The translations under genes and the position numbers were made by a program. From contig OX442314.1 in NCBI GenBank assembly GCA_949358305.1, positions 4,650,001 to 4,714,000 of the forward strand: a DNA stretch of 64,000 bases, in the 5' to 3' direction. The stretch is from Strigamia acuminata (lineage: Eukaryota). The notes below the pieces were generated by a model that searched no databases, had not been told where the DNA came from, and was given only the letters and a program-made list of their open reading frames with translations. This document shows, one piece after another, positions 1-36,609 of the stretch (positions within the stretch are counted from its first letter, which is position 1; each line of letters starts with the position of its first letter).

Positions 1-87
1 TAATATTACAACAATCTGTGATAGCTTATTGGTGCTCTCCCCTTGTCAGTTATATTCTAAAGTCGACTTGGTCAGAGTTGAACAAAG

Positions 88-274
88 TGATGTGTTCTTT
101 GGTCTCGATGAATTGTTATAAAAGTTGTGATAAGTGGAAGTCGGTCAAGAAGCAGCCATGTTATACGGTAAAATTAACATAAGTGATTTATTAATCGAAA
201 GTAATACAGGGGGCGCTGCGGAAAGCAGACGCGTCATGAAATATGCATAAACAAAATGGAGTTCGGACACTCCA
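88..274 (-). repeat. 3' LTR of Gypsy A
   Basis: Direct repeat of 11864-12050. Confidence 0.95.
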
Positions 275-419
275 GTATCCCCTTAATTGAAGACAACCAG
301 GGAATCAATTACAAAGGCAAACTAAAAACATTTAAGGTTAAACAATGAAATCAAAATGTAACAAAAGATTAATAAAAGGTTTACAACAATAAAAACGAAT
401 CAATTCAATTATCACAATT

Positions 420-3400
420 TCACGGAAAACCATAGAATTTAGTTTTGTTCTTGACTCGAGTTGAAGGAGGCCTACAAGTGACCCGCGGAGGCAATTGCTG
501 AGCAGGTTGAGGAACACGAGGCATCGGTGGCGGAGAAGGCGGCAACGGTGGCAGCGCAGGGAGCAACGGCGCAGGCAAAAGTGGTGGCGGCGGGGTTGCA
601 GGCGCGTCAGGCAAGTTCTGGTTAGGCGCGGGCATTACCAGCTGAGTTTGAGGTTGAGGCAGGACGACAGGCGGAACCAAACATGCAGTTTGTGGCATTA
701 CGAATGGGCCCGAGCTGCATTCATCCCCTTCAATTGGGAGAGGTGGTCCAATTGTCGCACGCTTCCGCAACTGGTCAATGTGACGAGACCACAACACTCC
801 GGACGCAATTTCGATAACGTACGTGGTCGAAGAAACCTTCTCCTTCACGACTCCCGGAATCCACTTTTCAGTATGTCTATAATCCCGGGCGAAAACGGCG
901 TCTCCGACTTCGAAACTCCTCGCTGTTTCCAGCAGGACTGCTGGTGGTAGTAGGCGAGGATTTAGGAGATGCAGGCGAGTTTGCATTGTCCGGTGATAGA
1001 ATTCCTCGGCCGGGGTTCGTTTAGTCGTTGCATGTGTCGTCGTTCTATACGAAAAAAGAAATTGTCGAAGTGAGTCAGCAAGGGAAAAGCGCAAATCGAT
1101 GAATTTTTCCATTTGTCGTTTGAATGTGCCGACAAAGCCTTCCACTGCGCCGTTCGTAGCGGGGTGGTACGGCGAAGAGAAGGTGTGACGGATGCCATTT
1201 TCTTCCAGAAAGTCTTTAAATTCACTCGACGTAAACTGGGGTCCATTATCCGAATGGACGTGAATTGGCAAGCCGTGTTGGCAAAACCAATCTTCTAAAA
1301 CAGCAATAGTCGCGGCTGCCGTGGTCGACGTCATCGTACGCACTTCACACCATTTGGACTTCGCATCAACTCCCAGCAAGAACATTTTGCCGAAGAATGG
1401 GCCGGCAAAATCAATGTGTAGGCGGCCCCAAACCTCGTTAGGAATTGGCCATCGGATAGTGTTCGTACGAGGCGGATCGGGCAGCGCTCGTTGGCAGGCA
1501 TCGCAGCTTCTCACAGTCCGTTCAATGTCAACGTCAATGGCTGGCCACCAGACTGTTGACCGTGCCAAAGATTTGGTCCTCACGATGCCAAAGTGGCCTG
1601 CGTGCAACTCGAGGGGAGGATCGACGCACGCAAGTCCGCAGGAACAACTAATCTGTCGTGGAGAAAAAGAAATTCGTTATAAATCGAAAAAGCATCTCGG
1701 TGCTTGTAAAAATCCCGCAGTTCCGGTGCCTTCGTTGGCCATCCATTGCGCACACAGAGAAGCACCTGTTGTAAAAGAGGGTCCGCTGCGTACGCGGATT
1801 GCAAGGCAGGTTTTGAGGCAGGAAAATCTGAAACTGAGACCGAAAATAAAGCGTTAATGTCAAAATCACAGTCTTTCGAAGTGTCGACGACAGGTTGCGG
1901 GTTGCGAGATAGGCCGTCCGCGATCGCGTTGTCCACAGCAGGCAGATGCTCGATTTGGTAGTCATAAGCGGACAGGAAAATTGCCCACCTGTGCAATCGA
2001 GCTGCAACGATCTGATTGCAACCCTTTTTTGTCGCCGAAAATCGATACGAGCGGTTTATGGTCCGTTCGCAAAACAAAACGACGACCAAAAAGGTAATGG
2101 TGAAACTTTCTGACGCCATAAATGATGGCATAACCTTCCCGCTCGATCTGCGCGTAGTTGCGTTGAGCGGCTGACAACAACGATGAAGCAAATGCTATTG
2201 GTTGGTGCTGTCCAGTCTTGTCACGATGCGATAAAAATGCGCCGACGCCGACAGGTGAAGCGTCCACAGTCAGGAACACTTCTTCTTTCTGGTTGTAATG
2301 CACGAGAGCCGAATCGACGGAGACCGACTCACGCACCTTCAGCCACGTCTTCTCGTGGACGTCCAACCATTCCCACTTCGTATCATCACGAGTGAGTCGG
2401 TACAGCGGTTCAAGCAGAGTCGACAAGTTGCTGATAAAACGGCCGTAGTAATTAACAAGGCCTATGAAGGATTTAAGTGAAGTCACGTCGGTGGGCCAAC
2501 CAGCATTGCGTAACGGCGCCAACTTAGATTCGATCGGAGAAATCCCGTACTTCGAGATGCGGAGGCCGAGGAAGTCGACAGAGTCACACAACAATTTGCA
2601 CTTGCCTCGATTCAATGTTAAATTCGCTCCGTCAAAGGCGCCGAGTAATGCGTCCAAATTCACCAGATGATCCGAGTTCGTTGGGCCCGTAACCGCCGAG
2701 TCGTCGATAAAAGGCTGCGTGTTGCCAACGTCCGCTGTCAGGATGTCCATCGTGCGTTGAAATAATGCAGGAGCGGTTGAAATCCCGTAAAAAAGTCTAT
2801 TAACCAAAAACAAACCCAAATGAGTGTTTATCGTACATAATTCGGAACTGGCAGCGGTCAAACGCAGTTGGTTGTAGGCGTGGTTCATGTCAAGGGTCGA
2901 ATACGACTCTCCCCCCGACAAATTTGCAGCCACGTCGGCGAACAACGGCAACGGATATGAACAAGGGAGAACCGCCTTATTGACAGTCCGGTTGTAACAT
3001 CCGGCTATTTTTATGGAGCCGTCCGCCTTCTTGACGTGCATAATCGGGGTCGCCCAACGTCAGGAGGCGACTGGCGTGATGATCCCGAGCGCTTGCAAAC
3101 GTCTGAGTTCCACTTCGAGAGCTGGCTTGACGGCGAGTGGCACCGGGTACGCTTTCAAAAAAATCGGATTAAAATTCGGGTCGATGTCAATACTCACCGG
3201 TGCCACGTTGTAGCATCCAATCTCGTCCCGGAAAACGTTCGCGTGCCTCTGCAAAATAGATTCAAGTTCATTTTTATCTTCCTTGCTCGCCGAGCAGCGT
3301 GGAGCAGCATCTTCAGCTGCCGCAGCCTTGCGGGAAGCCAATCCACACGCAGGGGCAGCAATAATCGACGGCGAAAGCGGCTCGTCGCGCGGCGCAGGCA

Positions 3401-4171
3401 GCGGTTCCGTGTCGCAAGTTGGAGCGACGGCGGATGTGGAATCTGGTTCAGGATCGAGTGGATGCTTGGCTCGCCGGCGAATCGCACGTTTGCGAGCTGA
3501 CTTCGATGGAACTCCCGGCTTGGCTTGATAAACAACAGTGCGCAGCGCTGCACCAGCGACGTCGAGGAGACCGAAAATATCCATCCAATCGCGGCCTAGC
3601 AACGGGACTTGGCCGTGCTCATTCACACACAACGGTAGAGTGAACGATTTTCCGTCGTATTCCACAGGAACAGTGCACACACCCGCCATTGGCAAAGCGT
3701 GGCCGTCGTACGATGACAGTTCTGTACCGAGCGATTGAAGTGGAAAACTCGAAAAGTGCTTTACGTACATCTCGCGACTAACGATCGTCGCTCCCGCTCC
3801 GGTGTCGATTTCCATCCAGAGGAGAATTTCTGCAATACGAAGCTCCAGTACCAAGGGTTTGGTGTGTCGGAGAGCCACTGCGTTCACCGAGTTCGGGGTT
3901 TGCAGTTCCTTCGTGCGGACGGCGTAAAACGTCAATTTTCGAGGTGCTGACATCGTCGTGTGATGAGCGCTCGCAGTCGATTTTGTTGCGCAACAATTGG
4001 GCTTAATGTGGCCCTAAACGCCGCAACCGTGGCATTTTGCAGTGCGAAAACGACACTCGTCCTGGCGATGGCCGGTTCTGCCGCAGTGTTTACACTTTTG
4101 TTTTTCGTGCTGCGGCTTCGAGTGGTCCGACTGCTGATGCTGCTGACCGGAGGTGCCCCTCGAGGGACGTT
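420..4171 (-). pseudogene. Gypsy A gag C-terminus and pol (zinc knuckles, protease, RT, RNase H, integrase), disrupted
   Basis: EIDTGA protease, FIDD RT, VDASP RNase H, HHCC and D-D-E integrase motifs split across ORFs; stops at 4014-4016 and 3060-3062; frameshifts near 2030 and 1610. Confidence 0.92.
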
Positions 4172-4629
4172 TGATGAGGTAAAACGGTCCTGTGGCTCTC
4201 GGAAATCAGTGGAAACGCAATTACAAAGTGCGGTTAATTCGCAACACGCGACCGCCATCTTTATTCACCGTGAGAACATAAAACAGTGGTCTGGGTTGAG
4301 GCTATATAATCTCAACCCCGATTACAGATCAACAAGGAGAACAAATCTATTATCACAATTGAATAGATTTATTCTTTACAATAAAACATAGGCTAAAGTA
4401 ATGGATAAACAATACCAAACATAACTAAAGTATCGTCGCTTAACAAGCAGACGACGGGAACGCACGTTATCAAGTCGACACAGCCAATTGCGGTACAGAA
4501 CAAGCTTATAGATAAAAATCAAATCAATTGGCTGACCATTCGTAACAATACAAGACAACGCGCTTGTTGTGCTTATTCGGAAATACACAACTGATAAACT
4601 TATCGCAAATCGTTCATCGTAAATCAACA
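4172..4629 (-). repeat. 3' LTR of Copia
   Basis: Direct repeat of 10624-11081. Confidence 0.97.
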
Positions 4630-4646
4630 AATCCCCCTTCGATGAA

Positions 4647-7600
4647 CTACTTTGCTGCTACAAAAATATGCTCGCACAATGCGTCTAGTTTTGCGCGAGA
4701 CAGCCACTTGGTCATAAGATCGGCCACATTAAGGGTTCCCGGGATGTGTCTGATTCGAAAGACACCCTTTTCAAACCAGTCGCGCACGAAGTGTAGTTTA
4801 ACATCTATGTGTTTGTTTGCGCGATTCTCTATGCGATTCTTCGCATATTGGATCGCTGGCATTGAGTCAGCGTATACACACGGTATTTCCCGGTTAAACC
4901 CATCCACCATCACGTCAGCACCAAATATGCGCTCTAACCAAATTATTTCCTTCACACCGCCTACCACCGCCAAGAATTCGCTCTCCATAATGGAAAGTGC
5001 AGTGATGGTCTGCTTATGGCAGTTCCAAGAGATCGGGACGCCTCCCAGGTAGATGATGTGCCCACCAAAGCTCCGACGTTTGTCCTGGTCTAATGCGAAG
5101 GACGCATCCGTATAAACGGTCAAGTTTTCACTTTGACAGTTTCCAAGATTGATGGAATAATTTGGCGTATTCCCTAGTTATCGCAAGATTTGGAGCAGCA
5201 TATTCACGTGTCGAGTCGAGTGAGTCTCGTTATATTGAGACAACACTATCACCGAAAACAGAATATCGGGTCTTGTACGACTTGCGATGAAAAGCAAACT
5301 GCCGACAAGAGACCGATACGGAAAACTCGAATTGACACGTTCCCCCGTTTGAACCTTTTGGATCATGGTGCCTGGGGTGCCAGGTACTCTAACACGATGA
5401 CAAGAGTCGATCCCATATTGCTTGCACAACTTCGCAATATAAGCGCGTTGATGAATAAAGATATTCTCCCCGTCCCTACAAAACTCTATCCCTAACAAAA
5501 GGGTGACGGGGCCCAAATTGACAATCTCAAATGATTGTTGAATCCAATCCAAAACGCACTCCTCTGCTATGTTGTCTTTTGAAAACAATACTATGTCATC
5601 GACATAGAAAATAAGTATAGCGTCAGTCCCCAAGCTATACACGCAATTGAGACCCAAGACCGGTTCAAATCCAATTTCAATCAGCTGGTCGTGGAGTCGC
5701 TGGTACCACATACGACCAGACTGGTGAAGTCCGTAAAGAGATTTTCTCAATTCCCAACATTTGTGTTGGTTTTCAGATGTTCGATATCCCTTTGGAATAT
5801 GGATATATTGCACTTCGTCGAGGTCCCCATATAAATATGCGGCCTTGATGTCGAGGTGTACGTCACGCCAGCCCCTCAGTACCACTAAGATACAAAAGAA
5901 CATCATGACTAACACGAAATTGACTACTGGGGAAAATACCTCAGTAAAGTCAATGCCCGGCTTTTGCTTAAAGCCCTGTGCAACAAGACGAGCACGATAT
6001 CTTCTAATCGTACCCGTGTGATCTCTTTTTAACTTGTAAATCCATTTTGATCCCAATAAGGTTTTGTCTTTAACCTGGTCTTTGTCGACTTCGACATAAA
6101 CCTCACGCTCTTTGAAAATGTTTATTTCGTCCTCCATTGCGTTTTCCCAATCTGGTTTACTAACTCCCGTTACAGCCTCCTCATACGTGTCTGGCTCGAC
6201 AGAGCAGCAACCAGCAAAACCAATAGTGACATCTTTGAAATTAAACAATTCTGATCTGTATTCGTATCCCTCGGTTTTACACCAACGAACAACCTCAACA
6301 CGGCTGCGGAGCTTTTCGTGCTTTGGTGTGATATACCAAACATCAACTTTCCCAGCTGTTGCCCCGCTTTGACGTACAGTCTGCCGTCTTTGCCACAAAG
6401 TCATGTCTAAAGGCAACAATTCACTAGTTGAAGCTGTACGTTCGCCAGTGTCTTTCCCTTTTCTAGGCGGGTTGCGACGAGGGACTGTGGGTGACAATTG
6501 AGGTGATAACTGAGGACTTGCGTCCGGGTCCTCAACTTCCTCGTTTTCATCTCCGTCGTCGGGATAAATGTTGAAGAAATCCCTATTATCCCCCTTCGCC
6601 CCACCGATTTCGTCATCATTTATAACATTTAAATCCCCAATGATGTATTGCATTGCATCAACATAGTTGAAATCCTCAGGTGCCCCACCCTCAACGGGTT
6701 CTTCTTTCCCTTCTCCTTCAGGATATTCGGGTATGGGGTCGCCGTGGACACTATCTGTCTCCGAGACAGAGTCATCAAAAGAATCCTCACCCGACGAGTC
6801 TGAATCGTCAGTGAAAGGCGAGAGAGTCAGTTGGGGATTCTGGAGATTTTCATACCAGAAATTCTGTTCTAGAATTTTAACATGCTTAGAGAGGAAAACT
6901 TGGTTTCTATTCGGATCCCAAATCCGATACCCACGAGTGGTAGAGGCGTATCCAATCAAAGCCCCCGCCCATGCTCTCTCTTGCAATTTTCCAGCTCTGG
7001 TTTGTGAAGGGACATGTACATAAGTCAATGCACCAATGCACTTGACGTGGCGTAAAGACAATTTCTTATTGAAAAACACATTATAAGGTGTCCTCCCACC
7101 CAATCCCGCATGCGGAAACCGGTTCTTTAAATAAACGACAGAAACTGCGAGTTCTGCCCACAGGGATGGAGGAAGACTATTTTCAATCATTAAAGCTCTG
7201 ATTCCACCAAGAATGGTCCGGTTTGTTCTTTCAGCGACCGAGTTCATCTCAGGGCTGTATGCGTTCGTTCGCATACACTTCAGTCCAATGCTACTGGCAT
7301 ATTCATCCCATTGTTTGGATACAAATTCCCCTCCATTGTCAGTTTTAATCGACTTGACTTTCCTAGAAGTCGTTCTTTCAATTTCGGTTAACCATTTCTT
7401 AAAATGGCCCAAAACTTCGCTCTTTTTCTTCATAATCATGATCCACATCAATCGTGAGAAGTCATCGACCATGACCAAATAGTAGTACGCCCCACCTATG
7501 CTCTTAACTGGTGAAGGGCCCCACACGTCTAAATGGACGATTTCTAAAATCCCTTTGGTCGAAATGTTCGCAATGGGGGGAAAACTGGCACGTGTGCTTT

Positions 7601-9482
7601 TCGCCCTCGAACAAGCATCACAACTCGACAATTCCGTGTTGGACAACTTTAAACCAAATACTTCAGTAGATTTGTTCAATAATGCAATTCCCTTCGCATT
7701 AAGGTGTCCCATACGGGAGTGCCAGATGTCCATCGTTTGGGGTTTGTCTGGTTTAATGGAAGCATCCTTTCCATCTACAACCCCATTTCCATTTGTTAAA
7801 TTGTTTTGCACAATTGTTTTCAAAATTTTCGCATTCTTGGGCTTATTGCCCTTACTGGCCACTAAGCTAGTCTGTGTGTTGTTTAAAACACTCAGTTGTT
7901 GATTCGAAATTTCCATACTCGCATTGTTTGCAACGATCGCTGGCGCATTATTCGCAGTTTTCGCTTGCCCCTTAATTGCAGGTACAGGTTTCCCTGATTT
8001 ACTCAAATTTTGGGTTAATGCAGTCTTAAAATTTAAATGGGTTAGTAAAGGATCAACAATTTCTTCACCCTTTAAAGGTGGACTAGATGCCACTGTTGCA
8101 CTCTGTTGCGCAGACAATGCAACAGTGTTTACAGAATTTTTAGTATTAATTCGACAATTGACCTTGTACATTCTATCACTCGTACGTGTAGCCGTGATAG
8201 AAGGGTCGTTAATGTCCTGATCATAAATGAACATTTTTCCATTCTTAACCATTGTCGTAGCCCCAGCTTCGTCCGTGCGACCTAAAGAAATTAAATTCTT
8301 TTTGAAGTTGGGTGCATAATAAACGTTCTTCAACGTCAGTTCACGTGTACGTTGTCCATGAATCGAGATTAATGTCACATTTCCGATGCCCTCGATTTTC
8401 GACTTTCCGTCGCCTTGTTGCACAGAATAACCAGTTAATGGTTTAAAGTCCGAAAACCAGGATTTGTTAAACGAAAAATGGTCCGTCGCACCTGTGTCGA
8501 CGTACCATTGCGAATCGTAGTTCGCATGTGACAATAACGACACTGCAACCGGAGGTTGCTCTTGACAAATCGCTGCAGAGAAGTAAGACACGGGGGAATC
8601 GCTGAAAATGTCCATTTGTGTGACGGCGGCCTTCTGCTGGCCTTTTCCACGATTTTTCCCTCGTTGACTTCCCCTGCTGAACTGTCCTATCGGGTTTCCT
8701 CTCGCAGCACCTTGTTGCTGTTTAGGTGGAGAAGGGCATTCCCGGGCGAAGTGGTTGGTTCCACCACAATTAAAACAGACACGTGGAGAACCGGAGACAT
8801 TTCCACCCCGGCCACGTTGCCATCTGCCTTTGGTGAAATAGGCACTTGCATTATCCACCATGCCTGCAGGAACCCCAAACTCATCTGTTTGTTCATAAAG
8901 GCGATTATATTCGCCTAATAATCGTTCTTTGACGGCCTTGGACGTGAATTCTGGGTCTCCCCAGTGGTAGACAGTCTGCTTGACCGTTTCGTATTGATGT
9001 GGCAGCAGATCCAGGTACTGAAAAGCCAGGAATTCGTCAGAAATGTCCACTTGGATGTCCTTTAACTCCAGGGCTTTCCTGTCAACTCTTGCCAAGAAGA
9101 CCATCATCTCTTCTTGCTCATGGAGTTTCAACATGAGAAATTCGTGACGAAGCCGGGCTTTGCGTGCCCTGGTAGTGGGCTGGTAAGCTGCTTTGAGCGC
9201 TTCCCAAACCTCTTTGGCCCCTTCGTGTGCCACAGCCACTACCTGTTGGGCTTTTCCACAAGCCAGACAAATGGTGGAGCGCGCTTTCTCCTCGCGCTTG
9301 TTAAACTCCCTGATTTCTTTCGCAGAAGCCGTGGCTGGCAAGGCTTTCTCCTTGCCAGTCACGTGGCCCCAAACTCCATACGACTGCAAAAGGAGTTGTA
9401 TTTGGACACTCCAAGTCGAATAATTAGTCCCATTCAGTTTTTCCACATCCTTGTAATCGTCACGACAATCCCAACTTGCCAT
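4647..9482 (-). CDS. Copia gag-pol polyprotein with one in-frame TAA at 5178-5180 before RNase H
   Basis: KLNGTNYSTW gag start, CFNCGGTNHFAREC knuckle, WYVDTGAT protease, WHSRMGH and D-D-E integrase, YRARLVAQG and FYVDD RT, VYTDAS RNase H in the same frame after the stop. Confidence 0.93.
6234..6419 (-). other. Methyl-CpG-binding domain inside the Copia polyprotein, between integrase and RT
   Basis: WQRRQTVRQSGATAGKVDVWYITPKHEKLRSRVEVVRW...LFNF fits the MBD pattern W-x-R...RKSG-x-SAGK-x-DVYY-x-SP-x-GKKFRS...FDF. Confidence 0.9.
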
Positions 9483-10607
9483 GTTGAGAAAATTCGGCGA
9501 AAGCAGAAGCACGAATCACTTTTCACAAAAAATTTCACCAATTCCCGCAGGAAAAACACACAAATATTCACGATGCACGTGAATATGTCGCACGGAGAAG
9601 CACAAATTTGCCCCCAAAAATTGAAGGCGAAAGGAAATACACTACTTCCCAAGGGGCACCTCAATAAGTGAGATGAAAAACCCAAATCTGGTCGCCCTAC
9701 TAGCTTCCGACCGGCCCACCTGGGGGACGCGGGACGACTAGTTGGCCACGGACAAGCCCAGACTGGAATGAGACTGTACTGGGGCGACTGCCCGAAGGGT
9801 ACAGAATATTCTAAGTGACCCGACACAAAAACCTTAATAAATAACAAAGTTTCACGAGAATCAATCAAAAAAATACACTTTTTGGTGTGAAGCTGGCCAG
9901 TTACGAGTTTCCCGCGTCGTAACTGGTTCCCACGTTGAATTAAACGTCGGCTTCACGTTGTCTTCGCACGGAACTGGGGCCGACGTGCAATCCGCGTACA
10001 CACATCCGTGTAAGCGCGGAGAAAATCGACGTTGCGCCCGTCCGCGCCTTCGTACTTGCTTTCCTGGGTGCAAAGTACGGAAACAATTGCCCACACACAC
10101 GCTTATCGTGTGCAGGACTTCTCGGTGAATCAATTCGTGTCGAAACGTCGTTTTTCCGTCTCTTTTCGACGAAAAATGGCCGCCGTTGCAAAATCGCCGA
10201 TTCACGGTGATTTCCGTGATGAAAACACAGCAAAACGATTCGAAATGCGACGTTGTTCCGACGTATTCCTTCGCAAAATCGATGCGAGCATGTATCGGCT
10301 CGTATACACAGCTGGCGACGGGCTTCACTGCTAACCGCGATGAAGTCCAAACAAAAATGGCGCCGCCGGAGAAAATCCGTTATATCGGCGAAAAAACAGT
10401 TCAAATTATTCGAAATAAATGTTCCTTACACCGCTCCGTGTCGAATCCTTCGTGCAATCGTCCGCACACGTATTCCAGACGTTTGCCGCACCAAAAATTC
10501 GTTTTCACGACGAATTGGGCGGGCGCGCACTTCGCGACTTCTCGTAGTCGGAAAATGGCCGTTTCACTCGTCAATTCCACGAAATTGGTCGGCGTTGATC
10601 GTCGCCG

Positions 10608-10621
10608 ATCCTCTGCTACCA
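10608..10621 (-). promoter_or_regulatory. Copia primer binding site, initiator tRNA-Met
   Basis: TGGTAGCAGAGGAT 2 nt after the 5' LTR, complementary to the metazoan tRNAiMet 3' end. Confidence 0.9.
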
Positions 10622-10623
10622 TT

Positions 10624-11081
10624 TGATGAGGTAAAACGGTCCTGTGGCTCTCGGAAATCAGTGGAAACGCAATTACAAAGTGCGGTTAATTCGCAACACG
10701 CGACCGCCATCTTTATTCACCGTGAGAACATAAAACAGTGGTCTGGGTTGAGGCTATATAATCTCAACCCCGATTACAGATCAACAAGGAGAACAAATCT
10801 ATTATCACAATTGAATAGATTTATTCTTTACAATAAAACATAGGCTAAAGTAATGGATAAACAATACCAAACATAACTAAAGTATCGTCGCTTAACAAGC
10901 AGACGACGGGAACGCACGTTATCAAGTCGACACAGCCAATTGCGGTACAGAACAAGCTTATAGATAAAAATCAAATCAATTGGCTGACCATTCGTAACAA
11001 TACAAGACAACGCGCTTGTTGTGCTTATTCGGAAATACACAACTGATAAACTTATCGCAAATCGTTCATCGTAAATCAACA
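10624..11081 (-). repeat. 5' LTR of Copia
   Basis: Direct repeat of 4172-4629, adjacent to PBS. Confidence 0.97.
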
Positions 11082-11684
11082 ACGTTTGCCTCCTTTTTGC
11101 GAGTTCGCATGTTGACGTGATGAATTTCCCGACTTGTGCAGCTGGTGTACGGACTGTTGCGCATCAACAAAACTGGACACGTCGGCTCCGGCGATTTCGG
11201 CGGAGGTAGCGACTTCGAGGGCTATTGCAAAGGTTAAATCTTTCTGCATACATAGCGTCTCTTGAACCTGCCGCATATTCAAACCGATCACGAACTGGTT
11301 CCGCATTTCGTCGTCTTGAGTCGTATCGAAGTCACAATACTTGGTGAGTGAGTGAAGAGCGGCTGCAAAGTCGCTCACGGACTCGCCTTTGTTGCGCTTA
11401 CGAGCTCGAAAACGGACGATTTCACCTTGTTTCACCGGTCTAGGTTTCTGGTTTTTGATCATTAAGTCTGTGAGCTGCTTAAACGTTAACTCCGTCGGCT
11501 TCTTCGGTCTGGCGAGATCCACGAACTTGGCGAAAGTGGCCATACCCACACAGGCCAAAAGCGTATTCACTTTTTCCTTGTCGTCGACGATTTTATTGCA
11601 GGAGAAAACGCATTCGATTTGCATTAAATAAGTCTCCCAGTCGTCAAGTGGGTTGTACTTTTCGGGTGCCGCAACCAAAGGCAT
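11082..11684 (-). pseudogene. Gypsy A gag N-terminal part
   Basis: DDWETY...LLACVG...LTKYCDF, homologous to gag starting at 19116; reading continues at 4171 once the Copia is removed. Confidence 0.9.
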
Positions 11685-11851
11685 TTTCGAGCGATGAAGT
11701 CGGTAAAAACGAGCAAAAACTTACAATCAAAAGTTCAGGCCTAACGGTCAACGCGTGGTCAAAGACACGTGGTCAGTGGCGAAAAGTTCATCAGAAGATC
11801 CCAAAAAAGCACAAAAGTTCGTAAAGTAACTGGATTCGGTGATTACCATCT

Positions 11852-11861
11852 CTCGTCGCCA
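11852..11861 (-). promoter_or_regulatory. Gypsy A primer binding site (tRNA-Ser-like)
   Basis: TGGCGACGAG right after the 5' LTR. Confidence 0.8.
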
Positions 11862-11863
11862 AT

Positions 11864-12050
11864 TGATGTGTTCTTTGGTCTCGATGAATTGTTATAAAAG
11901 TTGTGATAAGTGGAAGTCGGTCAAGAAGCAGCCATGTTATACGGTAAAATTAACATAAGTGATTTATTAATCGGAAGTAATACAGGGGGCGCTGCGGAAA
12001 GCAGACGCGTCATGAAATATGCATAAACAAAATGGAGTTCGGACACTCCA
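11864..12050 (-). repeat. 5' LTR of Gypsy A
   Basis: Direct repeat of 88-274. Confidence 0.95.
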
Positions 12051-12055: not shown

Positions 12056-12689
12056 GATTTCTCAAGATGGCGTCCTAAGTTCCGCGTGGTCGGCAGAACA
12101 ATGGTGGCGTCTGGAGATGGCGTTAATTCGTCACGGATTCGTCGTTTACGGACGCGGTGGAATGCTCTTTCGAGTCTTCTATCCGTGCCTGTTGTCTAGG
12201 GGTTACTTCTAGCGTCTCAAGGCTCTGACCAGGAACTGGGGTTCCTTACAGAGCTCTCGGACACTTCGGTGGCGGAATAACCGTGGGGCGGTTATTCGAT
12301 GTGAATTCACAAGGGCTATTTTCCTGCTTTTCGCGGAAATAGCACTCAGGTAAATTCGTGAGAGTTACAGTTGCACTTGACTCAGCGATCCTCAATCAAT
12401 CCTAACTTGTACTTGAAGTTGGCCTGACGGTGAGGTAGTTGCTGTGTTCTTGGTGTCGTTTGTGTAAGTTCTGATTTTAGGCGGGAAATTCCACCTTTTA
12501 TGGGTCAGTGTGAGGGGCCAGGCACAGCCAATGGGGGCTTGCCACGACCACCTCACTTCCCTCGGGGCACACACCTGCTCAGGGAGAGGCGGAGCCAACA
12601 CAATGGAAACGACCCGTCTATTGTAGTGACTCAAAGGGCAAATATTCGCTCGAGGGGGGGGGGAATATTTAACCCCTTTGCTCACCACA
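12056..12689 (-). mobile_element. Probable LTR remnant hosting Gypsy A (continues at 1-87 and beyond the window start)
   Basis: Minus-strand start TGTGGTG at 12689 like the LTRs of Gypsy C, TATA-like box near 12495, shared CCTCACCGTCAGGCC motif; other end not visible. Confidence 0.5.
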
Positions 12690-13667: not shown

Positions 13668-16600
13668 CCACTCATTTTAGACTAATTGAAAACCTGATCC
13701 AAGTGGTAGTCATGAAAATTCTGTTTATTTTTTTACTAGGACCCAAAAATTATTTTGGGCCCTAAACGTAGCTAGATCAGGAGATTTTTGAACTAATTGA
13801 AAAAAAAAATTTACGATTAATTTTAAGGTAAGTTGGCATGTTTTTACTTTTAGCATGCAAATGTTTAGGGAAACGGTTGCACCCTCTCTGTTTCCTAGTT
13901 GGAAAGAGCTAGGGGTTACAAACTTTCTTAATGTTTCATTGAAACAGAATGTCGCCAAGTCGCCAACTTTGCAAAGTTACTAAAGTTCCTAAAGTCATTA
14001 TCGGTTTTTCTCGCTTTTCCGTGTCACAACATCAATAATTCAACCCACAATTTTCCAATTAACTCCTGAAATGCCTGATTAACAAGCAGCGGATAGAGAA
14101 CTATACTTATCTATAATCAACCAGTACGTTGCTGGGAAACTAAGTATGAATACACACGTGTTGTTAGTTCACCTTGACCTCAGCAAGAGTCGAACAGCAG
14201 AAACTACAGCTACCAATTCAATTCTAAAACACAAAAAATCTCTTTGGCATACAGGATTAATAAGTTTATTTCCACTTATGTAAACATCATAAATGTAATT
14301 ATTAATCACTCAATCCTTTATACTCAATTGGTGTGCGAATAACCTAAAGAATGAAAAGGAACAGAAAACTACGTCTGTCAATTCATCAATTAATGAGAGA
14401 AGATGAGAACAAACCGAGCTGCGGTTTAACTGGTTTAAATGACTTCATTAACAGAAAACGACGTTTGAGCAAGATTCACGCTTTATGGCTTTTTTTGTTA
14501 TTATTTTGCACCTGCATTCTCACTTACCAAACATACAATAGTGTAATGCATTACTTAAGTTATCCTACGGCTGTAGATGTGTCGAGTAGATCGGATGACA
14601 TCGTTTTACCATACATCATGATCTGCAGTACGAATACAAAAGAAATGGCCAGGCTTTGGAATAAAAGTAGTGAATTAGATAAATCAGGTCGAATCAATCC
14701 ATTGCATTGCACAAACATGATGAAAACTATCATGGCAAGTCCAACCTACAAAATGGATGAAGTTTGGAAAGCAACTAATTTGACACCAGAAATAGTGAGC
14801 ATCAAAATAAAAGTAAAAAAAAAGCAAAAATCAAAAATTATCATAAAGAATAAAATCTAATCAGTTACTTTCTGCAGGGATATTCAAACGAAAGCTTTGT
14901 CCAGAAGGAAATGGACAGCCCATTTGGAATGTGCTCAGCATTTTGATTCGGTAAGTGATTAATCAACTGCCTTCCTTTTTTTGCTTCACTGCATGACCCA
15001 ATGTGGTGTGTTTGTGGCTCGGATTGTGTCGGATGGAGTTGGATATTGCTGGATGCGAAAATGGATGGAGTCGAGAAGGAGGCATCACACACGGAAGTAT
15101 TTACATAAGTGTTTTATTTGCATAGAAATTATAGGTGGCGCAACATGCGCTTTCGCACATCGCAAGAACACGACGTGCGTGATGTGCGTCACAAAATATC
15201 AACAGAAAGAAATGGAGTGTACTGTAAAACACTCCACAATGAACTTAATATTGTTAATCCTTGGCGCTGTTTTTTCAGTGTCCTATATGTTTAATTTATG
15301 CAAATAAAATCACTTGTAATTTTACTGTAACAAAAGACCGTTTCGTCCAGTCGTTATCCGCTATTGTGAAATTGCATTGAGTACGAAACTTACAATGGCT
15401 AAAAGTAAAATAATCTTCTTTCCACTGTGTTTAGAAAAGAATTCTAGTAAATCGTTTGTTGGAAAACTACTAACAGTGAATTTTGAAAAGTTTTATCAAG
15501 ACGTCTGCCCAAAAGTTGCATACATGGTAATATAAAAAAAAATTACAATCCAATAGCAACAAAAGAAACAAAATTTCTTTTCTTTTTTTCGCTTATAGAT
15601 TAGGCTATCATTATATAATTTTGGAAAAGCATACATCGTTACATATAAACCTAGTGGTAAAACAGTAAAACTAAGTTTGAGTTATGACAAAGTAAAATTT
15701 AAACTCGATCAAAATGAAACAACTATTCTAAGTCTCCTTTATAATTTAGTACGTGTTTCTCGATTCATCAAAACGCCCGTGCTCAAGTGAAAAAGAATAC
15801 AGAGGTTGCTACCAAAAGTGCTTGTTCAAAAGATTAGAAAACAATCTAACCTGCAGGTAAAAGAAATTTTTTCCTAACTAACCCAAAAAATGACATTTTA
15901 TGCAAATTTACTAACAAATGATGCTAAAAGTTTTTGGTAAATCAAATAACTTAAGCACTGCACTTTTGCTCAAAGTCAAAGCCACTGAACAAAACCATCC
16001 TAAGTTCATTAAATTCTTATTTTTTCTTAAGATTTCCTTTTCTGAAGATGAATTTACCTCTTTGTGAATGTTCAAATGCTATACACGATCAATACGGCAT
16101 TGTAAATAAATTAATTGATACCACAGACGCAATTACTACTTGTGATTGTCGACCTCCATGTCAGCATCTGTCTTTTACACCCTACACAGACTCCGGCAAA
16201 GCAGATGATGAAAAAATAATGTCTTTCACTTTATCACTAACCAATGATAAAATTACCCTGTATCAAGAGCGGTTCACTTACGACGTTATTGCTTTACTGT
16301 CTGATTTAGGCGGCAATTTGGGACTATTTCTCGGCCTATTGTTACTTTCATTACCTGAAATCACACGGTATTTATATTTTGTTATGACAACTATGCGCAA
16401 AACTACCAACCTTGATAAGGTTCGACAATTCTATGAGAAATCCAAGAAAGATGTTACTGACAGTGAAGAGAAAACTAACGGAGTTTTAAGCAAGTTTAAG
16501 TTGCTGCTGATTGTAATTAGTGCAGGATTCACTCTATACTTGTTGCAACGTCGTTTAAACTACTATCTGAAAGATCCTATATCAAAAATCATTACTATGG

Positions 16601-18743
16601 ATCAACGGCGCCACTTAGAGTTCCCATCCGTCACACTGTGTGGTGAAAATCGCAGTGATGAGATGGAACAAGCCAGATTGCAGTTAATTAAACAGACAAA
16701 CAAAACTTGCAATGACATATCACCGTGGCAATTGGTCAACAATAAATTGTCATTAGAAGATATTTGGAAGACCCTAAATATCCATCAAACAATGAGTGTT
16801 AAGGACGTGTACACCAAGGTATACAGATTTAAAAAACCTACAATACAAAGTGTATAAAATATACATTTACTGCATTATTATGGATATGCAACATTACTAA
16901 ACATAGCAATGAGTCTCGTCCCACTTCCATTTGGTTATTGTTCACAAGTTAACACAGGTAATTTACATGGAAACGTGAAGTGATCTCGGTTTCACCAATG
17001 TAAAACTAAGGTCGCTGATGCTTTTGCAAAGACTTATACTTAAAATAGCGCAGGTCGCTGTTCCGGCGTCTAATTGGAGTTGAACGCGGGCTTCGGTCCG
17101 CGTTACGGTGCTCGTTCCGGCAGTTGTCGAAATGTCTGGTTCCTCGGCAATTGGCGTGAGGGAAATCTCTCTGCTCGTGCGAACGGGTACGATCAGATTT
17201 CCGACAAATCAAACGAGAATTCCCATGTTAATTCTATGTATGAGTTCAGCAACGTTGTGGCGATTCCTTCCTTTGTTTCACTGCAGTTGCGGCAGTGAAA
17301 GAGCGTCGAAGCCGTGACTGACTGGAAATAGACTCTTTTCAGGTGAAGAGTTTAACTCTATCTTTTGGTAGAAGATATAACCGAATGTGTCTTGAAATAT
17401 CTGGCTGATATTTCAAGAGATGAATCTAACTCAAACAAATAACTAACAATCAATACTAAAGTAATTTCAAGTTTAGCAGTTATTTTTGTAAGTTCTGGTT
17501 TGTTCAAGTTCTGGAGTCATAATGATTTTCCAAAGAGGATTCCCCTCATGCTAACAGGATGTAGCATTTCCTGTAGCCCAGATTTTCCCTGGTTCACATG
17601 AAAATCATAGGGGCTACATCCTGTGAACCCTGGATATTTCTGCAACCCTTTTAGTACTTACTGTATTTATTTATTTATTACTAAATTACATAAACCAAAT
17701 ATTTTAAAGGTCATAGGAAGTGAAAAATAAAAATTGACAAGAAGATTACTTATGCCATTATTAGACCAAACCCGTTGTTCTTCAGTGATCAATTGTTTCC
17801 AGATTATTATATCGTTTGTTTTAACTTTGAAAAATCGTTATACGTCCTCCATTTTTAGTTTACGAAAGTTTCAAAAAGTTGTCGTTGGTGGCGCTTTTTA
17901 TGACGTCATCAGCGACAAACAAACAGCTTTTTAGCACCTGATTTCACTCAAAAAAATTTTATTTTTATTTTTATTTTGCATAAAATTGAATTTTTGGTGC
18001 ATATTTTATGCGCATAAAACACATTTTATTTTGCACAAATATCCGGGGTCTAGTTATATCTTATAACGAATCGATTTTTCGGGTCCCTTGCGATTCTTTA
18101 TCAAAAGTCTCAAATGTACTGTATTGGAGCCCAGATCCCTACTATGCATAAAATTATTATTTTTTTTAGATAAAACGAACCATGTAACAGCAGAGGTTAC
18201 AATTGCTCTCATAGATCTTTTTCCTCCAGAAGTTTGTGAACAACATCTATGGGTAATATCAAAATACACTTATTTTCGAAAAAATAGTTAATTTTAAGCA
18301 AAGAAAAATGTACGCGGATCTCGATTAGTATGCGGGGAAATCTAGATTTTGTAATTAGAACACCCTCATTCTATTAAAAGACTTGCGGTAAATCTAAATT
18401 ATAGACTAGCCAAATTTTCTGGTGTGAAAGCGGTATTACTATACTCTGATCAACTACAAGGTTGTATGTAACTTACCTTCTCCCATTGGCCAAGTCTCAT
18501 TACTCATATGTGCTACCACCAAGAAAAGTAGTTTTTGTTATTTTTTATTTTTTGGATGATTCTGATGATTAAAATATTAAAATTTTATTTTTTATTTTAT
18601 AATAAAATATTTTTTCTATTTATAAAATATAGTTTTATGCTGTTTTTATTTTAAAATACATGTATTTGTTCAGTTAGTTCAGTTTATTGGTTGTTTTGTC
18701 AGGAAAGCAAACAGTTTTTGAATTTTTTCTTCTCTATTACAAG

Positions 18744-21700
18744 TGGAGTGTCCTACTCCATCGGTCAATCTTGACCAATCGTTATGTTTTGGCGCTTTTA
18801 AGAGTAGCGCCACCTATATTGTAATATCAGAATAAACCAGTCATTTTAGTTTAACTTAGCTGACATGTTGCTTTCTTGACCACTAACTACATCAACGATA
18901 AATACACAACAATTGGCGACGAGAAGGATCGCAATCGACGACCCACAACCAGATGCTGCTTCGTATCAACTTTATTTGTGAGTTTTTGATCGTTTGATGA
19001 ACTTTTTGGCCGTTTTTGACCGTCGCTGACCACGCCGTCCCCGAAGTAGGCCTAGTCGTTCCGTGCTTCGAATTTTCGCGTTATTTGTGCCGTATTCCGC
19101 CTCCTTGCCATCAAGATGTCGGCGTTGAAAGGCACGCTTCGTGAATACGATTCCGGTGATGATTGGGAACTTTATTGTTTGCGTATGGCGAGTATTTTCG
19201 CCTGCAACAAAATAGTTGACGATTTGGAGCAGGTTCACACGCTGCTCGCGTACGTGGGCATGCCGACGTTGAAGCTATTGGTGTCGCTTACAGCACCCAA
19301 GAAGCCGGCCGAATTCAAGTACGACGAATTAGTGGCGCTCATGCAGAAGAACGCGCGCCCGAAGCCGCTCGTTTTGGCCGAAATACGTCGATTTCATCGG
19401 CGTGATCGCCAAGCAGGTGAGACCGTCACTGAATATTCTTTGGCTCTCCAAGATCTCGCCCAAAATTGCGACTTTGGTGAAAATAAATCGGACGAGCTGC
19501 GAAATCGATTTTTATGTGGCCTGCAAAACGAGCAAGTCCAACACGCCTTAACACTGAAAACTGACTTAACTTTTGACGACGCCGTTGCTTTTGCGGCTTC
19601 CGCTGAGGTGTCATCGAAGGAATTTTCGACTATTGCTGCTCAGAATACTGCTGCCACTCCTGTGCATAAACTCCACGAGTCAAAGCCGCGATACGAGCCG
19701 AACAGACGAGGCGGGAAGCGTTTCGCGAAGAAAAATGTTGCCTTTCCAACTCCACACCAACCATCCAGTAAAGGAAATGCGTCGGGGTGCTCGGCTTGTG
19801 GGAAATCGAACCACTCGCGCGATTCGTGTCGTTTTCGAGACGCCAAGTGCCATGGCTGTGGAAAGACTGGACATATTCGTCCGGTGTGTCGCTCCCAGAT
19901 TCCGAAATCGAATTCCACTCACGTTGTTCGCTTTACCGACGATATGGACTTTTATCAAGTCCGCTCTGGTCCTGCAACTGCAGTGAATTCCGTGTACTTG
20001 CCACGTGTGAAGCCAGTCATGATAACTATTTGTATCGATGGTGTCAATCTCGATATGGAGATGGACACTGGGGCAGGTGCTTCAATTATTGCTTTGGATC
20101 TGTATTTAAAACATTTTTCTCATTTTCCATTGCAGACCATTCCGTGCAACATGTACACGTATTCAGGCGACCAAATACAGATGGAGGGGGTTATCGAGGT
20201 TCCAGTCAGGTTTAAAAATCGAAATTTTCAATTGCCGCTCTGTGTCGCACGGGATGGTCCAGTTCCGTTGTTGGGCAGAGGTTGGTTGTGTATGTTTGGA
20301 CTCCTTTCGAAAACTGCCGAAGCGGTCGGCGCGAAAATTTACAAGACCGATTCCGTTGCTCCCAAACCCGAGGTTTTAGATTCCACTTCAGCCAAAGCTT
20401 TGGAAACGCTGTTGCTGAAGCATGAGCACACTTTCCGAGATGAAATCGGTCGCTTTAACAAGTCCACTGTTCACATTGACGTTGATCCGGCGGTACAGCC
20501 AATTTTTCTAAAAGCCTATCCAGTTCCCATAGCAGTTAAGCCGCTGGTCGAGGCTGAGTTGGCGCGCTTACAAGCGCTGGGTATTATTTCCCCGGTTGCA
20601 TCATCACGTTGGGCAACGCCCGTGATGCATGTTAAAAAGTCTGACGGCACCATCAAATTGGCTGGTTGCTATAACCGGACAATTAACAAAGCTATTTTTC
20701 CCAACTCATATCCTTTGCCTCTATTTGCAGATGTGACCGCCAAGTTGTCGGGAGGGGAAACTTATTCAGTATTGGATATGAATTCAGCTTTCAATCAATT
20801 GGAATTAGATGAGGAGAGCAAAATGTGTTGCACAATTAATACTCATTTGGGCCTTTTCAGAGTAAATAGGTTGTTTTATGGCATTTCATCCGCTCCCGCT
20901 CTATTCCAGCAAACGATGGACCAGTTGACAGCCAAGGTGAATAGTGCGCAACCATTCATAGATGACTCCGCCGTGACAGGTGCGACCAACGCGGTTCACC
21001 TGCAAAATTTGGACGTGCTTTTGACGACGTTCGGTGGAGCCGGTCTCACGTTGAATCGCCGGAAGTGTCACTTTTTACAGCAATCGATCCAGTTTTTAGG
21101 TTTAAACATTTCTAAACTAGGTATTTCCCCGATAGATTCAAAGCTCGCTCCACTCAGAGATGCAAGGCGCCCCAGTGATGTAACCTCTTTGAAATCGTTC
21201 CTTGGTCTCATCAATTACTACGGTCGCTTTGTTGCAAATTTGTCTACTCTGCTCGAACCGTTATATCGTTTAACACGTGACGATGTCGAGTGGAAGTGGA
21301 CAGAGGAGCACGAGTCCACATGGAAAAAGGTTAAGGTTGCTGTGTCCACTGAGTCGGCACTAGCCCACTTTGACCAGTCCAAAAAATTATTCTTGACGGT
21401 TGATGCTTCCCCGGTAGGTGTGGGAGCATTCCTTTCTCATCTTGATTCCGATGGTAATCACAAGCCAATTGCTTTTGCGAGTTCTCTCTTGTCGGCCGCG
21501 CAGAAGAACTACGCACAGATAGAGCGTGAGGGATTCGCCATTATTTATGGCATTAGGAAATTCCATCACTATCTGTTTGGGCGTCGTTTCTTCCTGCGTA
21601 CGGATCACAAACCCCTTGTCTCGATATTCGGAGAGAAAAAAGGATGTAACCAGATCGTGGCTGCACGACTGCATCGTTGGGCGGTATTTTTATCCGCATA

Positions 21701-23539
21701 TGATTTCATTATTGAACACGTGCCTGCTGTGGACAACGCCATTGCCGATGGCTTGTCTCGTAATCCACAACCGAGTGTGGACAGCAAAGAAGATTTGGAA
21801 GTCGGCATTAACAAAATTTATTCTGCTTTCATTTCAGATTTCCCCATGACTGCTACTTCTCTGAAAGCTGCTTATGCAGCCGACGAAGTATTGCAAGCTG
21901 TTTTGCGACATGTTCGCACCGGATGGGAATCACGCACGCCGGACACCGCTGAATTTTATAAACACCGGGACTCGTTCTCAACCTTTGACGAATTTTTATT
22001 TCTCTCTGATAGGTTGGTGATCCCGAAAACTGTCCGTCGTTCGGTGTTGGTCGAGCTCCACGCAGGTCATTACGGCATTGTCCGTACCAAATCGTTGGCG
22101 CGAGCCACGGTTTGGTGGCCTGGAATCGACGCTGACATCGAGCGCACAGTTAAGAGTTGCGATGTATGCCAGCGAAGCTTGCCCGATCCGCCCAAATCAA
22201 ACACCGTCAGTTGGCCAGTTCCAGACCAGGTGTGGGGACGGGTGCATCTCGATTTCGCCGGTCCGTTTCACAACTCGATGTTCCTGCTGGCGGTTGACGC
22301 CAAAACCAAGTGGTGCGAAGTGCGTAAGATGTCAACAACGACCGCCGCCGCCACTATTGACGTGATCAAGTCTTGGTTTGAAAATCACGGTTTGCCGTTG
22401 CATTTTCACACCGACAACGGACCACAGTTTACCTCGCAGGAATTTCGCCAGTTCTTGGCGATAAATGGAATTCGTCACACTCTCTCACCGCCATACCATC
22501 CAGCTACAAATGGCGCGGTTGAGGGTTTCGTGAAGACTTTTAAAACCCAAGTTGATAAATTTCTAACCTTGAATTTTTCCTTGTCGGATGCCGTATCCCG
22601 TTTCATCGCGTCGTATCGCACAACACCTCACGCTACGACGAAAGTTTCACCAGCTGTCGCCTTCCTTCAGCGTGAAATGCGGACCCGACTACATTTGCTG
22701 AATCCGCGACTTCTACCCGATGTTGATCAGATTGACATTCCGCGCCGTTTTGAAGTCGGGGACCTTGTGTTCGCGCGGGATTACCGTGGCACTCCTAAGT
22801 GGATACCCGGTATAGTTAAAAAGAAGACTTCTTCATCTACTTACGATATTGAAGTCGCTCTCGACGTGACGTGGAATCGACACATTGACCAGTTGCGACG
22901 TCGCGCAGATCCGAGTTTGTTGCCACAAAATGGGGGGAAAGATTGTAGAAGTTCTCTTCTTCCTTTTTCCATCACTTCTCAACCAACTGCACCGCCTGTA
23001 CCTGTGCCTGCGCCCGTGCCTGATCCGCTGCTCACCATTCCACCCGTTATCGTACCACAAAATGTTGCTCCAACACATGCACCACCGCTGCCCGTTCGTG
23101 CGCCATCGCCACCTGCAATTGCTGGCCCGAGTGCTCCAGTTCCTTTAGCGCTTAGCCCTCGACCAGTCCGAAACAGGAAACAAACGGACTTTTATGGTTT
23201 TCCACCGAATTGATGTTTGTGTTTGTGTTTAAATTAATTGATCTCATTTTGTGTTAGTTTAAATTCCATACTTTGTTCTTTATTAGCCTTTATATACATG
23301 TGTTTAATGTTTAATTTGTTTTATTCCCTTCTTGATTTATAATTGGTGTTTCTCCCAATTAAAGGGGATGTTGGAGTGTCCTACTCCATCGGTCAATCTT
23401 GACCAATCGTTATGTTTTGGCGCTTTTAAGAGTAGCGCCACCTATATTGTAATATCAGAATAAACCAGTCATTTTAGTTTAACTTAGCTGACATGTTGCT
23501 TTCTTGACCACTAACTACATCAACGATAAATACACAATA
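18744..23539 (+). mobile_element. Gypsy B (Mag-like), full-length, apparently intact, in an intron of ENaC gene 1
   Basis: 168-bp LTRs at 18744-18911 and 23372-23539 with one mismatch; TSD ACAAG; PBS TGGCGACGAG at 18914-18923; PPT AAAGGGGA. Confidence 0.97.
19116..23213 (+). CDS. Gypsy B single-ORF gag-pol, 1365 aa
   Basis: Two CCHC knuckles, EMDTGA protease, FIDD RT, VDASP RNase H, HHCC and DDE integrase, uninterrupted. Confidence 0.96.
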   Translation: MSALKGTLREYDSGDDWELYCLRMASIFACNKIVDDLEQVHTLLAYVGMPTLKLLVSLTAPKKPAEFKYDELVALMQKNARPKPLVLAEIRRFHRRDRQAGETVTEYSLALQDLAQNCDFGENKSDELRNRFLCGLQNEQVQHALTLKTDLTFDDAVAFAASAEVSSKEFSTIAAQNTAATPVHKLHESKPRYEPNRRGGKRFAKKNVAFPTPHQPSSKGNASGCSACGKSNHSRDSCRFRDAKCHGCGKTGHIRPVCRSQIPKSNSTHVVRFTDDMDFYQVRSGPATAVNSVYLPRVKPVMITICIDGVNLDMEMDTGAGASIIALDLYLKHFSHFPLQTIPCNMYTYSGDQIQMEGVIEVPVRFKNRNFQLPLCVARDGPVPLLGRGWLCMFGLLSKTAEAVGAKIYKTDSVAPKPEVLDSTSAKALETLLLKHEHTFRDEIGRFNKSTVHIDVDPAVQPIFLKAYPVPIAVKPLVEAELARLQALGIISPVASSRWATPVMHVKKSDGTIKLAGCYNRTINKAIFPNSYPLPLFADVTAKLSGGETYSVLDMNSAFNQLELDEESKMCCTINTHLGLFRVNRLFYGISSAPALFQQTMDQLTAKVNSAQPFIDDSAVTGATNAVHLQNLDVLLTTFGGAGLTLNRRKCHFLQQSIQFLGLNISKLGISPIDSKLAPLRDARRPSDVTSLKSFLGLINYYGRFVANLSTLLEPLYRLTRDDVEWKWTEEHESTWKKVKVAVSTESALAHFDQSKKLFLTVDASPVGVGAFLSHLDSDGNHKPIAFASSLLSAAQKNYAQIEREGFAIIYGIRKFHHYLFGRRFFLRTDHKPLVSIFGEKKGCNQIVAARLHRWAVFLSAYDFIIEHVPAVDNAIADGLSRNPQPSVDSKEDLEVGINKIYSAFISDFPMTATSLKAAYAADEVLQAVLRHVRTGWESRTPDTAEFYKHRDSFSTFDEFLFLSDRLVIPKTVRRSVLVELHAGHYGIVRTKSLARATVWWPGIDADIERTVKSCDVCQRSLPDPPKSNTVSWPVPDQVWGRVHLDFAGPFHNSMFLLAVDAKTKWCEVRKMSTTTAAATIDVIKSWFENHGLPLHFHTDNGPQFTSQEFRQFLAINGIRHTLSPPYHPATNGAVEGFVKTFKTQVDKFLTLNFSLSDAVSRFIASYRTTPHATTKVSPAVAFLQREMRTRLHLLNPRLLPDVDQIDIPRRFEVGDLVFARDYRGTPKWIPGIVKKKTSSSTYDIEVALDVTWNRHIDQLRRRADPSLLPQNGGKDCRSSLLPFSITSQPTAPPVPVPAPVPDPLLTIPPVIVPQNVAPTHAPPLPVRAPSPPAIAGPSAPVPLALSPRPVRNRKQTDFYGFPPN

Positions 23540-30512: not shown

Positions 30513-30953
30513 CGTCCTTCTCTGGAATCTCGGCTCTCAGTGCGTCGCGCATTTTCTCTGGAAAGTAGTGGATCAAGGTCTCTTGACTCGCCCAGAATCG
30601 CGAGCGGGCTCTGGACGCGGTGAGTCGTTCCACTCGTGTTCGCTTGGATCTTCATCCATTTCTTCCTCTTCGTTATCGGGCGATTGCTTCCAGTTTCTTC
30701 GCATTCTTGATTTATTTGTTGGTTGCGATCTTTGTCTGTTAAACACCTGTTGTTGTCGTAACGGATTGCGGAGTGCACAGTTTAAAAGGTAGTCGAGGTT
30801 AAGTATTTGATTGGTTTTCGTATAAGATGCGTATTTTGATTGTTGGAGTCTCCTTGTGATTGTTTTTGTCCCTAGGAGGTCGGGGTAATTACGTCATCTT
30901 TGTCTTTATCCTTTTGATTGGTTAAGCCAACCATTTTGGATCTTTCTGCTGCA

Positions 30954-36520: not shown

Positions 36521-36609
36521 GTTTCCGTTTTGAGGAAGGAATTGGTTATTTTGCGAAGAATTCTGGCGCTGAGGAGAATTCTGGTTAGTTAAAGTTGGGG
36601 AAGTCGTGG

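Follow-up and report, generated by a model that had tools for sequence, protein, structure and literature searches.

The closest described counterparts of the element treated here are the CopiaMBD retrotransposons, which de Mendoza, Pflueger and Lister published in 2019 from Strigamia maritima and Stegodyphus spiders (PMC6673714; this and the other papers cited are represented by excerpts). Three Strigamia CopiaMBD domains bound methylated, CpG-dense DNA in DAP-seq, and young CopiaMBD copies have CpG-rich flanks; the bias of these flanks points one way in the centipede and the other way in the spider, each tracking the host's own methylome (PMC6673714). The role in targeting is correlative, and in the excerpted text the authors leave other roles open (PMC6673714). 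Strigamia transposons are CpG-dense and about 76% of them are highly methylated (PMC6673714, PMC7343188). CopiaMBD elements are so far on record from two host genera, with targeting still a hypothesis (PMC6673714); the 2019 survey scanned Parasteatoda and, as far as the excerpts go, had no CopiaMBD there (PMC6673714), and no later CopiaMBD report appears among the literature matches listed.

The window, that is, the whole 64-kb stretch of DNA analysed (64,000 nucleotides), contains at 4172-11081 on the reverse strand, as do all features of the element given below, a young Copia LTR retrotransposon. Its paired LTRs of 458 bp each (3′ LTR at 4172-4629, with TG...CA termini; 5′ LTR at 10624-11081) are 100% identical, letter for letter, and the element is bounded by the target site duplication (TSD) ACGTT, with a left copy at 4167-4171 and a right copy at 11082-11086. 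Next to the LTRs lie a primer-binding site (10611-10621), presumably of the initiator-Met tRNA type, and at 4632-4640 a polypurine tract, a role we take from established LTR-element biology; there are no tRNA genes within the window. A single gag-pol ORF of 1434 aa (5181-9482) encodes, according to Pfam, gag, zinc knuckle, protease, GAG-pre-integrase, rve, SH3, an acidic linker, a methyl-CpG-binding domain (MBD) and RVT_2. The Copia-type gag with its CCHC zinc knuckle occupies 8730-9398, the protease region with Pol_BBD and a DTG motif 8262-8507, and the integrase 6852-7745 (GAG-pre-integrase with HHCC, 7745-7596; rve core, 7541-7251; SH3-like domain, 7073-6852); the low-complexity linker (6396-6851) leads from the integrase SH3 to the MBD (6234-6395), and reverse transcriptase (RT) with a YVDD motif follows at 5382-6077 (RVT_2, E 1.7e-52).

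In this copy a premature in-frame stop (5178-5180) separates RT from an RNase H-like C-terminal pol region (4650-5177), which has no Pfam match and which, by position and motifs, we take to be RNase H of the Ty1 type. Owing to this stop ahead of RNase H, the copy is non-autonomous; few copies carry it, because most of the contig depth differs at the codon (6630.8 of 6630.8 in X1, 2385 of 2443.3 in X2 and 601.5 of 631.7 in X3, for contigs of three sequencing runs). In each of the three runs, contig depth across the element, which is no copy number, is many-fold above the depth of host DNA close by, and the family is therefore multi-copy.

The element is nested in a Gypsy-type LTR element on the same strand (85-12050; LTRs at about 85-274 and 11861-12050, 99% alike; pol split into several ORFs). 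The insertion point lies in its gag, between the capsid-like part, which corresponds to ORF 11076-11720 (Retrotrans_gag, E 2e-4 in Pfam, under the cut-off), and the zinc knuckles. A contig of run X3 connects 4167 to 11083 with five ambiguous letters, an empty site that probably comes from another copy of the Gypsy family. The first-pass annotation, made from the sequence, had the Copia element landing in the gag of another element with the TSD ACGTT, and both the split gag and the two TSD copies bear this out. It had also called the insertion site CpG-rich and had regarded the CpG within ACGTT as a sign of targeting. The former stands relative to the window, since the 150-bp flanks hold 9.67 CpG per 100 bp as against a window mean of 4.84 and fall into the top 4.8% of window positions; within the host Gypsy, for this one insertion, the site is unremarkable, as 24.5% of positions there have flanks at least as CpG-rich. 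The latter was rejected, a CpG occurring in a 5-mer at a chance rate of 0.33 in the host Gypsy and 0.19 in the window. For the window's four other LTR elements, with boundaries taken from BLAST, the flanks have 0.67-6.84 CpG per 100 bp. The CpG-rich flanks of the Copia insertion, a single event, fit the published CopiaMBD pattern. In four LTR pairs transitions affected 9 of the 226 CpG sites, as against 27 of the 783 remaining C/G sites (OR 1.16, 0.54-2.51, p 0.69, with 36 transitions only), and no CpG hypermutability or methylation footprint was seen in these pairs of the window; this null leaves methylation of the repeats possible, because Strigamia transposons are both CpG-dense and methylated.

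The remainder of the window is rich in repeats as well. Three further LTR elements lie at 18744-23540, 27551-38380 and 39449-53397; one of them has an unbroken gag-pol ORF of 1385 aa (19056-23213), another has LTRs of 611 bp together with additional ORFs, among them one of 765 aa (28239-30536, reverse strand), and one has 1.6-kb LTRs and an extra ORF of 563 aa (41695-43386, reverse strand). A 760-bp element at 25014-25774, whose long inverted arms agree at 97% over 215 nt, is MITE- or foldback-like, and a repeat of very high depth in all three runs is found at 12100-12600, just beyond the 5′ LTR of the Gypsy. DEG/ENaC channel genes (PF00858) are located at 14348-16965 on the forward strand, with related pieces near 23545-24520 and 53997-58550. 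The neighbouring DEG/ENaC exon had Strigamia maritima T1JEH2 as its sole match (53%, E 5e-88) among 2726 candidates of 526-2000 aa; the other ENaC exons are 57-61% identical to T1JEH2 and the main exons overall 50-61%. This one gene speaks for a myriapod host, likely a centipede, in line with the first-pass hint of a myriapod or chelicerate, which it narrows. In ORF 15955-16857 the end of one channel unit appears to continue into the start of a second, and T1JEH2 has the same tandem layout; going by these sequences, two-unit ENaCs may be a myriapod expansion.

The segment at 6234-6419, which the first-pass annotation had described as MBD-like and placed behind an acidic integrase tail, is in frame inside ORF 9482-5181, adjoins the integrase and is joined to it without an intervening stop. 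The Pfam search proposed at the time as a check gave a match to PF01429 at aa 1030-1083 of the 1434-aa ORF (nt 6395-6234) with E 1.6e-9 and 37.7 bits, the cut-off being 21, and the 72-aa piece searched alone reached 43.8 bits; the linker of 152 aa, with 39 D/E and 9 K/R, is acidic as described. The top sequence match in the PDB is human MBD1 (1d9n, E 1e-7), to which the domain aligns with the same residue numbering. Both CpG-reading arginines and the aspartate are retained, as claimed (R22 at 6374-6372, D32 at 6344-6342, R44 at 6308-6306), E48 (6296-6294), K30 and C53 are intact as well, and the first Tyr of the DVYY motif, Tyr34 of MBD1, is indeed replaced by Trp, encoded by TGG at 6338-6336. 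Of the canonical features of a methyl-selective MBD, the two arginine fingers and the Asp that holds the first of them are thus present and Tyr34 is absent, and the domain is not grouped with the canonical methyl-selective readers. An AlphaFold model built from a 16-row alignment (pLDDT 86) has an MBD fold; it superimposes on MBD4 (3vyq) with an rmsd of 1.2 Å (E 3e-5), MeCP2 and MBD2 come next (1.2-1.7 Å for 3vyq, 6c1y and 6cnp), and as the input alignment of the model consisted of MBD proteins, the fold match is dependent on the sequence match. TAM structures rank beneath the canonical MBDs, and the replacement of the arginines by lysines that is typical of the BAZ2 TAM domain is not seen in the Copia MBD.

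Assignment of the element to the known CopiaMBD type, for which the first-pass annotation had referred to the work of 2019, agrees with the domain order, the RT tree and Cys53 (PMC6673714). A HMMER scan returned 333 proteins at E <= 0.001 (the best 150 of the 333 are listed); in Pfam runs on 54 chosen proteins many have SH3, MBD and RVT_2 in that order, and the position of the MBD directly behind the integrase is constant across relatives. The three best full-length relatives, P0006, P0002 and P0151 (Araneus ventricosus), all carry PF01429 within a Copia polyprotein. Named relatives are from Strigamia, Araneus, Uloborus and Parasteatoda, and the nearest ones from ENA and Logan records; P0013, P0059, P0027 and P0151, from Parasteatoda tepidariorum, Uloborus diversus and Araneus ventricosus, are of the CopiaMBD type. 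For the RT tree, 161 proteins had at least 200 aa of RT (23 with and 138 without an MBD), and the 23 together with 48 of the 138 (the top 30, then every sixth) were kept; ten rows were then excluded, six because they were RT-only fragments, three as redundant MBD rows and one as a long branch, and 61 remained. All 20 MBD rows, the query included, fall on a single branch of 24 rows (support 96/83), where the query clusters with P0006 and P0003 (99/88) at an identity of at most 52%. Of the four MBD-less rows on this branch, one is a deletion derivative and the other three have an MBD-like stretch that has diverged. The tree is rooted at the midpoint and contains no published Strigamia or Stegodyphus RTs, so that its link to the published clade is indirect, through the Araneus rows and P0156, whose MBD resembles, by eye, Stegodyphus rows of Table S3. 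Cys53 is shared by the query and 63 of 67 Copia MBD rows and occurs in 2 of 21 other MBD rows. Strigamia T1IKB2 is 53% identical to the MBD over 43 aa, and its core matches that of CopiaMBD1, one of the domains tested by DAP-seq (Table S8, PMC6673714), at all but one residue by eye. With RT identity of at most 52% to any database relative and MBD identity of 53% to the nearest Strigamia one, the element is classed, by sequence, as a divergent member of the CopiaMBD group and as a distinct subfamily of it.

Three close RT relatives, P0152, P0154 and P0155, have a strongly diverged MBD-like stretch (profile E 0.005-1.9, missed by Pfam), and P0153 has no MBD; the former three are Copia polyproteins of the query's RT subclade and possibly contain neofunctionalised or decaying readers. 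The best single match of the MBD comes from krill, in a protein that has no Copia domains (P0038, 53%). Despite this match, independent capture of a host MBD is unlikely, for RT placement, MBD position and Cys53 agree with CopiaMBD. P0038 and P0096, the latter from the Branchiostoma MBD4 cluster, are the two non-Copia MBDs with both Cys53 and a QxGATAG-like loop; as a lead, this resemblance suggests either an MBD4/MeCP2-like donor gene or an origin of P0038 from a CopiaMBD. When aa 990-1130 were used in a word-indexed search for homologues, no relative turned up among 525 candidates, whereas the HMMER scan and a longer query did find relatives; a scan of metagenome contigs gave 74 pattern matches and no relative, and the ESM Atlas yielded only sub-0.9 leads to RT-start clusters.

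Across the 59 Copia-linked MBD rows in the alignment of the homologues found, position 34 is occupied by Tyr in 55, by His in 2, by Phe and Thr in 1 each and by Trp in none; the 26 other MBD rows have Tyr (22) or Phe (4) and likewise no Trp. Excluded were three rows with a gap at this position; near-copies are numerous among the rows, and some of the 26 are fragments of CopiaMBDs. The published CopiaMBD rows of Table S3, read by eye, have Tyr in 22 of 22 cases and Trp in none, and according to the excerpted text this Tyr is kept in most copies and is not an annotation criterion (PMC6673714). At the position of Arg22, Lys is found in 17 of the 59 Copia-linked rows. The change from Tyr to Trp takes two base changes, and codon 34 is without any difference among the 40 best-supported of the 372 differences that contigs of the three runs reveal; the two of these 40 that do fall within the MBD, at 6315 and 6333, are both synonymous, and the one at 6333 accounts for all contig depth in X2. 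Trp34 is thus likely common to the whole family, and sequencing error is an unlikely source of it, given the two base changes needed and no difference at this codon among those 40.

In MBDs with known binding, Tyr34 makes a solvent-mediated contact to methylcytosine that is not strictly required: MBD3, which has Phe34, remains able to bind mCG, if about 10-fold more weakly than its F34Y variant (10.1101/338061). In chicken MBD2 the Y36F exchange changed the affinity from 2.1 to 109 μM, a drop of about 50-fold (PMC3159451). The sole Trp spotted by eye in the position-34 column of Table S3 belongs to human BAZ2A (PMC6673714), whose domain binds DNA regardless of methylation and is missing both arginine fingers (PMC8600091); its Trp551 is described as a residue of the hydrophobic core (PMC4446428). 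No report of an MBD combining Trp34 with intact arginines was found in the literature searched. Judged from its residues, methyl selectivity of the Trp34 domain is less certain than that of the published CopiaMBDs, and Trp34 is the one new and testable detail of this CopiaMBD.

The account we favour, to which we give slightly better than even chances, is that the MBD acts as an integrase-linked CpG reader that biases insertion toward CpG-dense, likely methylated repeats, with Trp34 lowering its methyl selectivity. The protease would leave the MBD on the C-terminus of the integrase; Arg22 and Arg44 would read the guanines of the CpG and stack on the methylcytosines, and Trp34, which has no Tyr hydroxyl to bridge to methylcytosine via water, would behave like Phe34 of MBD3 and likely weaken methyl-CpG reading rather than abolish it. 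New copies would thereby be tethered to CpG-dense, likely methylated repeat DNA, and the resulting bias would place them in other transposons and spare genes. What is observed is the anatomy of the element, the MBD within the ORF between integrase and RT, the arginine fingers with their Asp, the MBD fold of the model, the RT grouping and one insertion in a CpG-rich Gypsy; binding, cleavage and targeting are inferred. The account draws on the Pfam, PDB and fold matches, the MBD-bearing full-length relatives and the RT branch, Cys53, the likeness to Strigamia T1IKB2, the DAP-seq and flank results (PMC6673714), the mCG binding that MBD3 retains with Phe34 (10.1101/338061), the CpG-rich flanks and the synonymous nature of both listed differences within the MBD. 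Counted against it are that there is a single insertion, in a host Gypsy where 24.5% of positions are as CpG-rich, that a CpG in the TSD is no more than chance would give, that four LTR pairs gave no sign of CpG hypermutability, that the published targeting role is itself correlative (PMC6673714), and that several relatives have lost or degraded the MBD or its arginines; by analogy to chicken MBD2 Y36F, the cost of Trp34 could also exceed what is assumed (PMC3159451). Alternatively, the MBD of this lineage might be a relic in decay, with Trp34 as part of the functional loss; P0152, P0154 and P0155 with their heavily diverged stretches, P0153 without any, and the 17 of 59 rows with Lys for Arg22 point that way. 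We regard this as very unlikely, however, since R22, K30, D32, R44, E48 and C53 have all been retained, the Pfam score clearly exceeds the cut-off, the model is confident and both listed differences among copies within the MBD are synonymous.

It is conceivable, if rather improbable, that Trp34 has abolished the methyl preference altogether, so that the two arginines read CpG-dense DNA whether methylated or not and the family targets CpG-rich repeats without regard to host methylation. The absence of Trp from the 59 database and 22 published Copia rows, the two base changes and the apparent fixation of Trp in the family (suggested by the lack of a difference at this codon among the 40 best-supported ones, next to a synonymous difference that takes all X2 depth) fit such a shift, as do the lack of CpG decay in the LTR pairs and the methylation-independent binding of BAZ2A, with Trp in the same column (PMC8600091). 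The BAZ2A domain, however, lacks both arginine fingers, which accounts for its mode of binding (PMC8600091), and its Trp551 is a core residue (PMC4446428); MBD3 with Phe34 still binds methyl-CG (10.1101/338061), and missing CpG decay is compatible with methylation where transposons are both CpG-dense and methylated, as in Strigamia (PMC7343188). Somewhat akin to this is the idea, which we hold as doubtful, that the reader has been re-tuned in a CopiaMBD subfamily of a second myriapod, the family-wide exchange of Tyr34 for Trp with arginines kept making it a methylation-tolerant or otherwise re-specified CpG reader; if true, this would be the first sign that such elements evolve their targeting domain to fit the methylation landscape of the host. 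The MBD might also function outside integration, for instance by relieving silencing through competition with the host's own MBD proteins for methylated LTRs, in which case nesting would reflect selection against gene disruption after insertion. The CopiaMBD authors raised a non-integration role and, in the excerpted text, did not reject it (PMC6673714), and nested LTR elements that have no MBD abound in the window, so that landing in a repeat requires no reader. The placement of the MBD right behind the integrase is invariant in relatives, however, and the flank biases are opposite in centipede and spider, following the respective methylomes (PMC6673714); we consider the proposal quite unlikely.

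A very young, multi-copy CopiaMBD family in a host that is likely another myriapod would allow an independent test of insertion bias. The combination of Trp34 with Arg22 and Arg44 is a natural variant at the very position that separates MBD2 from MBD3, and bears on the share of the Tyr in methyl reading. CopiaMBD elements in Araneus, Uloborus, Parasteatoda and many further assemblies indicate a broader spread than that of the 2019 survey. The known picture of CopiaMBD is unchanged unless altered binding specificity is found.

In comparison with known systems, the element is like the published CopiaMBDs (PMC6673714, as excerpted) in having a single ORF in which the MBD lies between integrase and RT, in its Copia domain order and similar size as an LTR element, in the arginine fingers, Asp and Cys53, in an RT on the MBD-bearing Copia branch, in a myriapod-type host and in its insertion into a CpG-rich LTR element; it differs by Trp34 where those have Tyr in 22 of 22 rows, by the stop before RNase H, and in that binding is here a prediction. 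With MBD1, MBD2, MBD4 and MeCP2 it shares the predicted fold (1.2-1.7 Å) and R22, D32 and R44, as well as E48 with MBD1 and MeCP2, while Trp stands for Tyr34 and the domain is part of a transposon polyprotein without a repressor or glycosylase partner domain. The lack of a Tyr hydroxyl at position 34 is common to mammalian MBD3 (Phe34) and the TAM domain of BAZ2A (Trp); MBD3, however, has Phe at this position and binds mCG weakly, and the TAM domain has lysines for both arginines and an extra structural module, whereas the Copia MBD keeps the arginines. Chromoviruses, finally, would be alike if a reader fused to the integrase steers insertion to heterochromatin (PMC6673714), but they are Gypsy elements with an integrase chromodomain that reads a histone mark, whereas here a Copia element carries a reader of DNA methylation.
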